From positions 335,482,001 to 335,546,000 of the forward strand of contig OZ024743.1 of NCBI GenBank assembly GCA_964016885.1: a stretch of DNA of 64,000 nucleotides, written 5' to 3'. The first letter of the stretch is position 1; each line of letters starts with the position of its first letter. A program made the translations under genes and the position numbers. The notes below the pieces were generated by a model. The model saw nothing but the letters and a program-made list of their open reading frames with translations, searched no databases and was not told the DNA's origin. The DNA is from Eledone cirrhosa. Its lineage: Eukaryota. This document shows, piece by piece, positions 5,695 through 30,646 of the stretch.

Positions 5695-5906
5695 AATGAA
5701 GGAAGTGTGGTAAGGAACCAGGTGGACCATAACGCACCAGAGTACTCGATACTTTGGGTAGTAGAGTGGGTAATAGGAAAAGAATCAGAACTCCGACGGC
5801 AGAGCTGAAGCCGTTTCCACAGCTATTTCTGGACTGAAATAGCTTTCCAGAAATAGTTGTCGAAACGGCTTGAACTCTGCCGTCGCGGTTCTGACTCTTT
5901 TCCTAT
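5695..5906. mobile_element. Fold-back element family F, copy 1 (78-bp tail plus ~60-bp-arm hairpin) in (TA)n
   Basis: Arms 5773-~5833 and ~5846-5906 are reverse complements; homologues at 29891 and 30453. Confidence 0.85.
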
Positions 5907-5973
5907 ATATATATATACATATATATATGATAAAGAACACAAGAGCGTCTACAACATCAAAAGATTTTTATTG

Positions 5974-6018
5974 GCTTACAATGTTTCTTCCTTACGTAAC
6001 CGTAGGATTCGTCAGAGC
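5974..6018 (-). ncRNA. Minimal hammerhead ribozyme in a pLTR-like unit (~5930-6235)
   Basis: GCT-CTGACGA-ATCCTACG GTTA CGTAAGGAA-GAAA-CATTG-TA-AGC then CAATAAA. Confidence 0.8.
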
Positions 6019-6789
6019 TATAAAAGGGGTTTGATTGGTGTTATGGACTCTACCAACCAAACATTCAAGAACAAAGAGTAAAGAGAGTAAAGAGCAAAAG
6101 TAGGGGACGATAAGTCTAATTTTGGTGCGGGAGGGTGGGGTGTGGGTCCTTGTTTACTAGCTGCGGTCATATTCATTCCCGGGAGTCGAGTGGTTAGTTG
6201 AGCCATAGATGGGGTAGCGTCGATAGTATGGTGCATATATATATATACATACACACACACACACACACACACACACACACACACATATATATATATATAT
6301 ATATATATATATATATATATATATATATATATATATATATATATATATATATATATATATATATATATATATATATATATATATATATATATATATATAT
6401 ATATATATATATATATATATATATACACACACACGCATAAATATGAGCCTTCCAGTTTCATTTCATATTATATACATGTCTGTGTATACTGTAATTATTT
6501 AAAAATTATTTTTACGTGAACATGATTTTTAAAACATATTTTGAAGTGCACTTGACCTAATGGGTCACGGTTGGTCTAGGACATTCTAAATTCAAAACAT
6601 CCGTTATACGTTTAAGTATTTCACAAGGTTTTATAACTATTAAGACCTGTATAAGAAAAAACAAAACAACTGTATATAACATACTTGGTAACATAGGTTT
6701 TATAAACAGTATATCAACCATTGTATGAATGTTTCCACCTAATTTAGATTCATAAACTTCGATATTTATTGTCCGGTAACTCCTGATAG

Positions 6790-7050
6790 AGTCATAGGGG
6801 CGCCGCAGTGACATACGGCGTTTCACGGGTATCTTAAGCCTGGCGGAGCCCATCCCTCTTCAGGTCTGAGTACAGCCGATATCTTCCAGGGAAAGGTAGA
6901 AAGTGAGAGAGAGGAAACGAGAAACAGATGTAGAGGAAGAATCGACCCTGTACCAGACTAGTACTTTTTTATCGACCTCGAAATAATGACTGGCAAAGTT
7001 GCCATAAAGTGTTCTATCCCACGTTCTAACGACCCTGCCAATTCGCCACC
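6790..7050 (-). mobile_element. SINE variant with extended 3' part (homologue at ~21120-21373)
   Basis: Shared CATA.GG..CC.GCAGTGACATACGG..., GAGGAAGAATCGA and TGCCAATTCGCCACC head. Confidence 0.6.
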
Positions 7051-27600: not shown

Positions 27601-29890
27601 AATAAATAGCAGCTACAAAAGAAAAGAAATTAGAAAAGTACAAGAAAAAAATCATTGAAACAGAAATATATTACATATAAACACGTGTGTATTAGCAGAC
27701 GGTGACATATATCATTGTTTTCTTATACAGGTAATAAATAAAAGCAATGGAAAATTGTTTCACTTACTTGTTGTGCAAATTAAAATAATTAATACCAGTA
27801 TAGGGGACTCCATTTTTAATGTGTGTATATATATACACACACATATATATATATATATTTATATATATATATATATATATATATATAGATAGATAGATAG
27901 AGAGAGAGACAGAGAGAGAGATATAGATATAGAGAGAGAGATGAACCAGGATAGAACTTTTTTATAAATAGTTAAACCATTACTCAACAGAGTACTCGAA
28001 ATTTGGGGTAGTTGAGTATGGCTATTTTATAAAGAGTGGCTTCGAGTGTCCCGACTCGTTATAATATATATATATATATATATATATATATATATATATA
28101 TATATATAGAGAGAGAGAGAGAGAGAGAGAGAGATGTATGTATATTTCTATATATGAAATATTAAGTCCGCTGGTACCTTCACTTGTAAGTTATATGTCC
28201 AAATAACGAAAAAATAAATAAATTTCAATCTGGTGCCAAATAAAGAAATATATGCATTAAAGATATGTAAATAAATGTATAAACAAATATAAGAAAGAAG
28301 AGAAGGAAGTGCCGAAGCAAAACGAGGATTACAAGAGTAGCATAACAGAGGCTGCCACCAAAAGTCGTGTGAAGTTTCCTTTAGGTTTTTCTTTTCCTTT
28401 TACTTTCTTTTTAATATTATTATTATTGTTATGATTTAGTCTTTTATCTTCCTTTAATCAACAAATGATGTTATGCATTTCAGCGAAATAATAATAACAT
28501 AATAATATTTATTATAATGATGATAAGAAAAATGGATTATGATGATAGTCAGAATGATTGATGCTAATAAAATATATCCATTTGACAGTGGCTATTTGGC
28601 TGATTTGATGTTGTTGTTGCTCTTGCTGCTGTTCTTTTTGTTTTGTCTGTTTGTTACTATTACTGTTTATTTTGTATTATTTTTTGTTTGTTTGTTACTA
28701 TTACTAGTTTGTTTGTATTATTGTTTGTTTGTTTGTTACTATTACTGTTTTTTTGTATTATTTTTTGTTTGTTTGTTACTATTACTGCTTTGTTTAAATC
28801 GAGAAAGTTACACAAGATCCATTACCTGCTTCACAGATATGTTTATAAAGTTCTTCCTGTTGTCGGTGATATTTCCCGGCAGTACTGATGTTGCTTCTAC
28901 TACTATTGCTGCTGCCAATAATAATAATAATAATAATAATAATAATAATAATAATAATAATGATAATAAATAATAGTAGTAGTAGTAGTAGTAGTATGAT
29001 AATGGCAATGAATGAATTTATGGATAGATAAACAATAAAGGATATGTTAAGTAAATAATACACCTCGAATCATATACTAAAGAAAGTAATGTCTGTCTGT
29101 CTAAGATCCTTGTTGAGACACGACAGAAAATATAGAATCCAGCAACAATCAAATGTTTCTGTGAAAACGATCAATAATAATAATAATAATATAAATGATG
29201 ACTTTGTAAAGAAATCCAGGAAATATATAGTCCAGGAAAGGAAACGGAAAAGATAAAATGTTTATAAACTTAAATATAAAGTAAATATTAGAACTGAACA
29301 AAGAAATTAACTCGGCCGTAGCAGGGTTGTGTTTTAATCCTACCCTGTACTGATGAAACTTAAGTTCAACATATAAGAGAGAGAGAGAGGGGGGGTAGAG
29401 ACATAGATAGATAGAGAGAGATGGGGAGATGAGGAGAGTGAAGGGAGTGATGGGAGAGGATCAGACAGATAGAAAGAGAGAGGAGGAGAAAGATAGTGAG
29501 AGAAAGAGAGGGAGGAAGAGATAGCTAGAGACAGAGAGAGAGAGGAAGAGAGAGATAAATAAATAAAGAGAGAGAAATAGATAGATACAGAAATGAAGAG
29601 AGAGAGGGGGAAAGAGAGAGAAAGACATATATAGACATACAAACAAACTGAATGATAGACATTTATATATATATATATATATATATATATATATATATAT
29701 ATATATATATATATATATATATATATATATATATATATATATGTATGTATATATGTATATATATATATATATATATATGTATATATATATATACATATAT
29801 ATATATATGTATATATATATATGTATATATATATATATATATGTATATATATATATATATATATATATATATATATATATATATATATAT

Positions 29891-30094
29891 AACGAAGGAA
29901 ATGTGGTAAGGAACCAGGTGGACCATAACGCACCAAAGTACTCAATACTTAGGGTAGTAGAGTGGGTAATAGGAACAAGTAAGACCCCGACGGCTGAGCT
30001 CAAGCCGTTTCGGCGGCTAATTCTGGACTGCATTAGCCAGAATTAGCCGTCGAAACGGCTTGAGCTCAGCCGTCGGGGTCTTACTTGTTCCTAT
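29891..30094. mobile_element. Fold-back element family F, copy 2
   Basis: Arms 29969-~30026 and ~30037-30094; flanked by (TA)n. Confidence 0.88.
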
Positions 30095-30452
30095 ATATAT
30101 ATATATGTATATATATATATATATATATATATATATACATATATATATATATATATATATATGTATATATATATATATATGTATATATATGTATATATAT
30201 ATGTATATATATGTATATATATATATATATATATATATATATATATATATATATATATATATATATATATATATAGAGAGAGAGAGAGAGAGAGAGAGAG
30301 AGAGAGAAGCAGAGAGATAGATATATATCTTTCTTTATTTGCCACAGGGACGTACAAAAATGGAACATTACAAGACGTGACGGCGGGAGTTTTACATAAA
30401 AATCATATAACTTTAACATTAATAAATAAAAAGAGACTATATATATATATAT

Positions 30453-30646
30453 AACAAAGGAATTGTGGTAAGGAACCAGATGGACCATAACGCACCAGAG
30501 TACTCAATACTTAGGCTAGTAGAGTGGGAAAGAGGAAAAAGTATGACCCCGACGGCAGAGCTCAAGCCGTTTAGATGGCTATTTCGGTCCAGAAATAGCC
30601 GTCGAAACGGCTTGAGCTCTGCCGTCGGGGTCATACTTTTTCCTAT
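30453..30646. mobile_element. Fold-back element family F, copy 3
   Basis: Arms 30533-~30585 and ~30592-30644; flanked by (TA)n. Confidence 0.88.

Follow-up and report, generated by a model that had tools for sequence, protein, structure and literature searches.

The window analysed here is a stretch of 64,000 nucleotides (nt) of the Eledone cirrhosa genome (assembly GCA_964016885.1, contig OZ024743.1, positions 335,482,001 to 335,546,000 of the forward strand), and it holds three copies of a short fold-back repeat that is referred to below as family F. We consider it probable, at about 0.7, that these hairpins are inverted pieces of the pseudo-long terminal repeat (pLTR) of a Hydra-clade Penelope-like element (PLE), made by twin-primed complementary DNAs (cDNAs) that would have run off the 5′ ends of their RNA templates and been end-joined. 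The parentage of the hairpins, the anatomy of the ribozyme from which they derive, a pair of start sites and a pair of stop sites, varied junctions, symmetric arm lengths and rare hybrids are directly visible in the genomic copies; they point to twin priming, end-joining and in vivo cleavage.

Each window copy (5695–5906, 29891–30094 and 30453–30646) lies between (TA)n and consists of a 78-nt tail and a hairpin with arms of about 55–63 nt. An earlier note on this DNA, made from the sequence alone, had described the copies in this way, and its coordinates and layout were read back. It had also held that arm variants are mirrored within each copy. The mirroring is real and imperfect: left and right arms differ at seven, one and four positions of the outer 57 nt in copies 1, 2 and 3, and the variant quoted for copy 1 is off by one base between its arms. 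The 3.0-Gb genome was searched with a two-arm pattern in which both 13-nt anchors had to match exactly, which makes the resulting count a lower bound. This search returned 15,115 forward and 15,077 reverse matches, corresponding to about 15,100 family F loci as the pattern is self-complementary; the reversed control returned none, so the hairpins are not chance matches. The flanks are (TA)n at every locus where they were read, and a target-site duplication is therefore unreadable.

The parent of family F was reached through a bystander copy (L069), which exposed an older, longer relative that has both family F ends and carries TTGATAA in its upstream half. In the genome, 642 pattern matches link TTGATAA to an exact family F arm (control, 0), and stepping upstream of such copies led to reverse transcriptase (RT) and endonuclease fragments. 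One locus, L191, is a complete tandem of pLTR, open reading frame (ORF) and pLTR of about 3.5 kb, in which the tail leads into the 5′ untranslated region (UTR) and the ORF follows about 100 nt on. Pieces of the ORF, read in L191, L196 and L197, include RLRWR (RWK-like), SDKTG (DKT), CNCPDRSSC (CxCX5C), CNLC (CxxC) and CKH (CxH), no CCHH, and a GIY-YIG-like region at the C-terminus. By themselves these pieces gave nothing significant or relevant in Pfam or PDB; homologues gave weak, sub-cut-off Pfam matches, to RVT_1 in P0011 (40% identical) and to GIY-YIG in P0002 (36%). The parent is, as judged from its sequence, a PLE with a predicted RT and a predicted C-terminal GIY-YIG endonuclease. The architecture of PLE pLTRs, i.e. 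a partial tandem, an inverted 5′-truncated copy and an optional tail, is also present: L191 is the tandem, and L192–L199 are inverted pairs with the tail on one arm in seven of eight. The motifs and the (TA)n target, matched against the published description of the Hydra clade, make the parent a putative member of that clade.

A full type I hammerhead is found in the parent pLTR, with the variant core UUGAUAA, in which U3-A8 replaces C3-G8. Three stems surround this core, and the 3-8 pair, G12 A13 A14, A15.1-U16.1 and NUH are all in place. Unforced folding gave the hammerhead three-way junction in three of four parent copies, and in two of three in a second trial. In an alignment of 18 copies from three lineages, 96% of the stem cells pair, against 30–50% in slid controls, and three pairs of stem II are changed on both sides. 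The core is UUGAUAA in all 18 aligned copies, which were chosen by that motif, and U3-A8 is invariant. Rfam detected no hammerhead in the window, nor any in three loci of the parent, and the canonical CUGAnGA hammerhead of the Hydra clade is absent from the parent. A parent with CTGAnGA, as had been expected at the outset, was sought and not found: the search gave 40 matches, and the 30 that were read are chance junctions, variable tips or chimeras with other repeats. Hammerhead searches that depend on CUGAnGA miss such parents.

Each family F arm is the 3′ half of this PLE hammerhead. The 5′ half is absent, so no complete core exists in cis, and the copies are head-to-head inverted pairs of half ribozymes. 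The earlier note had already read the arms as halves of a PLE hammerhead, and the parent with its complete ribozyme and RT ORF (L191 and the 642 matches) bears this out. It was likewise right that the GAAA/stem III/GUC half occurs in every arm (the right arm of copy 1 has GCGG after GTC), that CUGAnGA is absent from family F copies and that the symmetry axis falls within loop II.

Every arm starts at one of two fixed sites 78 nt apart, CCTAT or the tail end, and this pair of sites matches the tail signature of PLEs. The long insertions share the family F plan, with inverted arms and the same ends as the PLE. Small size, palindromic form, high copy number and TA flanks would also suit a MITE (miniature inverted-repeat transposable element) of a DNA transposon whose sequence merely derives from a PLE. 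We find this hardly credible, as the ends are asymmetric, with one inverted-repeat end lying 78 nt inside the element, both ends are the PLE's own in long insertions, and the tips differ per copy, while a cut-and-paste MITE would copy its centre. A parvovirus-like flip/flop or DNA-transposon origin was abandoned after the PLE parent had been found.

Hairpin tips were sampled at 76 position-ordered loci, of which 72 were parsed as hairpins and four were not; the samples were picked with gap-limited patterns, which cap the visible arm length, a point to be held against our reading of these data. The tips are hypervariable, with 54 distinct centres among the 72 hairpins, and carry short microhomologies, deletions and short inserts. 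The earlier note had proposed that a single cDNA copies the RNA up to stem II, snaps back on that stem and copies itself, giving the same palindrome repeatedly and templating the second arm from the first. The diversity of centres speaks against a repeated palindrome. A stem-like centre, TTC-AGTCCA-GAA, is among the commonest (5/72, in one lineage), as such a fold would lead one to expect, but it occurs in both orientations relative to the tail. The fold point does not coincide with stem II either: arms end about 41 nt past the scissile bond, and the true 5′ strand of stem II is absent from family F; it is found about 66–77 nt beyond that bond, and the mirrored arm has another sequence.

Arm lengths bear on the same question. 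Fold-back of a tail-primed cDNA needs a tail arm at least as long as its partner, so longer tail-less arms contradict templating by the tail arm. Among the 72 hairpins the tail arm is longer in 30, the tail-less arm in 25, and the two are equal in 17; for differences of at least 3 nt, the tail arm is longer in 17 and the tail-less arm in 13. Window copy 3 has a longer tail-less arm. The same holds for two kb-scale pairs, L194 (2.4 kb against 1.2 kb for the tail arm) and L196 (3.0 kb against 0.3 kb), in which neither arm could have been copied from its partner; in L195, L197 and L198 the tail arm is the longer one. Pairing of arms by locus, which the earlier note had put forward as a check, was found: diagnostic sites are G/G at 3,090 loci and C/C at 2,603, and three-site G/C hybrids number five. 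Such concordance is what self-copying predicts, and self-priming has been proposed for PLE junction palindromes (PMC3846280). Hybrids do exist, among them L214:1500–1750, a medium-length inverted pair with arms of different subfamilies, and the cleavage-site class described below has no stem II at all. Snap-back on stem II is in our view very improbable; a minority of copies could have arisen by a microhomology fold located elsewhere than on stem II.

Several observations weigh against our explanation. The hybrids, 5 against 5,693 concordant loci, are far fewer than under free mixing; since they are so rare, both cDNAs would usually come from one RNA or from the RNA of one master. The low hybrid rate is also predicted by fold-back and is by itself no evidence for two cDNAs, and symmetric arm lengths could be explained by later trimming of the tips. 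Folding of the ribozyme yields weak z-scores (−1.4 to −1.6), and the covariation comes from three related lineages, which makes it support and not statistical proof. Every parent copy that was read has a broken ORF. Finally, for subfamilies C and G at most four long arms, at three loci, were found among 16 matches. These subfamilies comprise thousands of hairpins as well as cleavage-site copies; they may stem from a solo pLTR, from a 5′ pLTR of variant form or from a short transcript that is cut in trans.

The first of the two stops lies at the cleavage site of the ribozyme. At 620 palindrome loci, both arms end near the predicted scissile bond. The first 50 of these were sorted by hand: 26 have both arms stopping no more than 2 nt from the bond, in many cases with untemplated A/T; of the other 24, 11 are joined within stem III, six extend 3 nt past one side, five have one long arm or another form, and two are ambiguous. 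The tail was present in all 20 loci fetched from this search. Cleavage is a property of the sense RNA, and the template for cDNAs of this class would thus be the 3′ product of cleaved sense RNA. Stops at the scissile bond argue against the antisense self-priming that was proposed for rotifer Penelope elements in PMC3846280, and they imply that tips mark RNA 5′ ends. Two-arm stops at the expected bond lead us to predict that the parent ribozyme cuts in vivo, and we read the class as probable fossil evidence of self-cleavage in vivo and of sense-RNA templates.

The same stops bear on the suggestion that a perfect palindrome was inserted and its tip later nicked and trimmed by a cruciform centre-break, giving both heterogeneity and symmetry. 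Long perfect palindromes are unstable, and the tips do resemble end-joining scars. Trimming leaves unexplained the two-arm stops at the scissile bond with untemplated A/T, the single arms with the same limit, the hybrids and the unequal kb-scale pairs, and we regard it as highly improbable.

The second and main stop lies in loop II. In each of the five references, 41 nt separate stop A (AGT[C/A]C) from the scissile bond. Among the 144 arm ends of the 72 gap-limited hairpins, 46 reach exactly stop A, the remainder being trimmed, and none holds 8 nt of parent loop past it. Forty-two bystander arms were also mapped: 18 end at +35 to +44, five at −3 to +1, ten at +80 or beyond (most of them in loci retrieved on account of their long copies) and nine elsewhere. 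In contigs assembled from public DNA runs, summed depth, which is not copy number, falls about 30-fold across the stop, from about 3–5 million to about 0.1 million; the peak of loose contig ends there was possibly helped by a private base in L191 beside the stop. Past the loop-II stop, neither the bystander arms nor these contigs show a truncation peak of comparable size. Single arms fused to foreign DNA have the same stop. About 30,000 short arms stand against 642 long ones, by patterns that differ in stringency, which suggests that the short route dominates.

The stop sits at TCAGT/TTAGT, which we take to be the invertebrate initiator pattern, and this motif is conserved in three lineages though loop II otherwise diverges. 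Of these lineages, only the two young ones have a TATA-like AT run, at −29 to −31. We lean towards reading the main stop as a pLTR promoter's capped transcription start, and this is the weakest step of the argument. Copying of a cap is expected to leave a non-genomic G before the A. In a hand count of 100 rows of 4,146 loci, such a G precedes stop A in 11 of 39 arms of one lineage. Against a capped start stand the 0 of 61 arms with this G in the other lineage, which leaves the signal mixed, and an extra C that a hand count found in about five of 52 arms at the cleavage stop, which is uncapped. There is overlap between the TATA-like run and stem II, and the old lineage lacks the run; no clear downstream promoter element was seen, and many arms extend 1–5 nt beyond the A into genomic TTT/CATT, so that the stop covers a window and not a single point. 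Promoters are known from PLE pLTRs (PMC2377424, PMC3846280).

Twin priming on the same parent could also operate if RT paused in loop II, at a structure of the RNA or at a protein bound to it, or if the RNA had another cut there. A stop window of 0–6 nt, the inconsistent cap-G signal and a weak AU-rich sub-hairpin that can form in loop II would fit such a pause or cut. By then RT has already passed stems I, III and II, all of them more stable; the initiator-like motif is conserved while the loop diverges, and no truncation peak of similar size lies past the stop. A pause or another cut is on balance unlikely. Two further candidates were set aside: a 3′ splice acceptor or trans-splicing at the loop-II AG, as no constant upstream exon lies beyond the stop, and untemplated poly(A) at the main stop, which is weakened since parents of the G and C types carry genomic TTT there.

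Retroviral minus-strand strong-stop DNA is a run-off product at an RNA 5′ end, and in L1 twin priming two primers at one insertion give rise to an inversion. The route that we propose differs from both in that the run-off products would integrate as a palindrome and both primers would be set on fixed RNA start sites. At a cut in (TA)n, RT would prime cDNA on each of the two DNA ends, using two RNA start sites 78 nt apart, and both cDNAs would reach the 5′ end of the RNA, run off and be end-joined. The main run-off would take place in loop II of the U3-A8 hammerhead, at the capped pLTR transcription start, and that of the minor class at the ribozyme cleavage site. If the main stop is a transcription start, family F is the strong-stop-like product of the 5′ pLTR copy: RT starting there would yield 61- and 139-nt cDNAs, while starts at the 3′ pLTR copy would lead to long, variably truncated insertions. 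A more far-reaching version is doubtful and offered tentatively. In it the pLTR promoter would fire within loop II, each mRNA would begin with the substrate half, an RT dimer would integrate strong-stop cDNAs in pairs, with a frequency tens of times that of full copies, and C and G would be short RNAs of a non-autonomous kind that the autonomous RNA cuts in trans with its enzyme half. Should this hold, retrotransposons would have a way of turning out MITE-like hairpins in large numbers, and the 5′ ends of RNAs would be left mapped in the genome. At L215:1240–1500, units of about 25 nt, made of sequence just upstream of and including the ribozyme core, form a tandem array that suggests repeated slippage or re-priming of RT.

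Hydra-clade PLEs (Craig et al. 2021, PMC8557442) resemble the parent in their C-terminal endonuclease, RWK-like and DKT motifs, CxCX5C, CxxC/CxH and lack of CCHH, as well as in (TA)n targeting, a 3′ hammerhead, an inverted 5′-truncated copy and a tail. They are mostly below 3 kb with tails of 30–40, whereas the parent here is about 3.5 kb with a 78-nt tail and a long loop II; the Hydra hammerheads in File S2 of that paper are all CUGAnGA, unlike the U3-A8 core found here. Family F adds to the clade a large excess of fixed-length minimal palindromes. In vitro, the tail of the anole PAc Poseidon PLE is set by two RT start sites, and cutting and extension take place on both DNA strands (PMC11167929). 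This Anolis element (Frangieh et al. 2024, PMC11167929) is similar in having internal starts downstream of the hammerhead, and a dimer is predicted there. It differs in that its starts lie inside the ORF, cleavage is dispensable and no RNA reads ended at the cut site, whereas the genomic copies here have stops both at that site and at a further fixed one. Penelope elements of Adineta vaga (PMC3846280) share inverted pLTRs with a tail, junction palindromes, and a pLTR that carries a TATA and an initiator-like motif. That study inferred self-priming on an antisense template; stops at the sense-strand cleavage site together with longer tail-less arms indicate two sense-templated cDNAs here.

The min-hammerheads of Schistosoma Cercyon (PMC4209133) share the U3-A8 core, an extra nucleotide before stem II and opposite-strand pairs 100–700 bp apart. 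Their helix III is minimal, whereas the parent here has a full 5-bp stem III, and the passages of PMC4209133 that were consulted describe no half-ribozyme palindromes. Animal non-LTR retrozymes (bioRxiv 10.64898/2026.07.22.740005) are also non-coding derivatives of PLE pLTRs with type I hammerheads; they are head-to-tail tandems with complete ribozymes, while family F consists of head-to-head halves. PLE insertions that are inverted and tailed are already known, as are, separately, U3-A8 cores and two RT start sites. In the open-access literature we found no PLE-derived half-hammerhead palindromes or strong-stop products, though a Repbase or Dfam consensus may exist under another label, and in that literature we found neither the abundance of minimal palindromes with fixed run-off points nor the cleavage-site palindrome class.

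The route by which PLEs make inverted, tailed insertions and the cutting of their hammerheads in vivo are stated as open questions in PMC8557442, PMC11167929 and PMC3846280. Thousands of minimal insertions provide base-level statistics that favour two sense-templated cDNAs over self-priming, and the cleavage class is fossil evidence suggesting in vivo cutting by a U3-A8 ribozyme, with RT still copying the RNA after the cut. Palindromes that look like MITEs can thus be products of retrotransposition, and annotation pipelines would likely misfile them. Short perfect hairpins are favoured substrates of adenosine-to-inosine (A-to-I) editing in other animals (PMC5625713), and tens of thousands of hairpins could matter to the host in this way.

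In copy 1 of the window, the tail (5695–5772, − strand), read directly, spans the 78 nt between the two presumed RT start sites; in the parent it runs on into the 5′ UTR and ORF. The tail-bearing arm (5773–5835, −), a 3′ half of the hammerhead that ends at the loop-II stop A, is 87% identical to parent L191 over 149 nt. A junction insert (5836–5845), read directly, is mostly a duplicate of neighbouring arm sequence, and the tail-less arm (5846–5906, +) ends in CCTAT followed by (TA)n, as read and compared with the parent. In copy 2, tail (29891–29968, −) and arm are 97.9% identical to L191 over 144 nt; by arm-end mapping and parent comparison, the tail-bearing arm (29969–30029, −) reaches the loop-II stop. 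It is followed by a junction (30030–30036, read directly) and by the tail-less arm (30037–30094, +), whose predicted scissile bond lies between 30074 and 30075. Copy 3 consists of a tail (30453–30530, −), a tail-bearing arm (30531–30585, −) that is the shorter of the pair and ends 35 nt past the scissile bond, and a longer tail-less arm (30587–30646, +) that reaches 40 nt past it, both placed by arm-end mapping.

A short element in simple repeats at 27939–28072 carries about 42 nt of the central motif of the tail (79–83%) without an arm; no second copy was found among the fetched loci. Two copies of an unrelated family, at 56517–56788 and 56917–57187, follow the same plan, with a tail of about 60 nt and a hairpin with arms of about 100 nt, in or beside (TA)n. 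They are 95% alike, in opposite orientation, and are likely products of the same process in another PLE family. Fragments of PLE RT/endonuclease with 37–56% amino-acid identity to the parent lie at 43907–45184, 49611–51299 and 60693–61758, and further PLE-like RT frames near 8087–8818.

Other families contribute four hammerhead-like motifs with the canonical CUGAnGA, on the + strand at 5530, 10069, 14258 and 33391, and each of the four has an extra nucleotide ahead of stem II. Those at 14258 and 33391 belong to one family, and that at 5530 ends just ahead of family F copy 1. Outside the window, single family F arms are fused to hammerhead regions of other families in L031, L045, L053, L039, L051 and L059 (around position 1500). 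L059 and L051 are chimeric hammerheads joined at the common GTCGAAAC, in a sample that is biased by the search pattern. A 5S rRNA gene or pseudogene is located at 54657–54775 on the − strand (Rfam, 85 bits).

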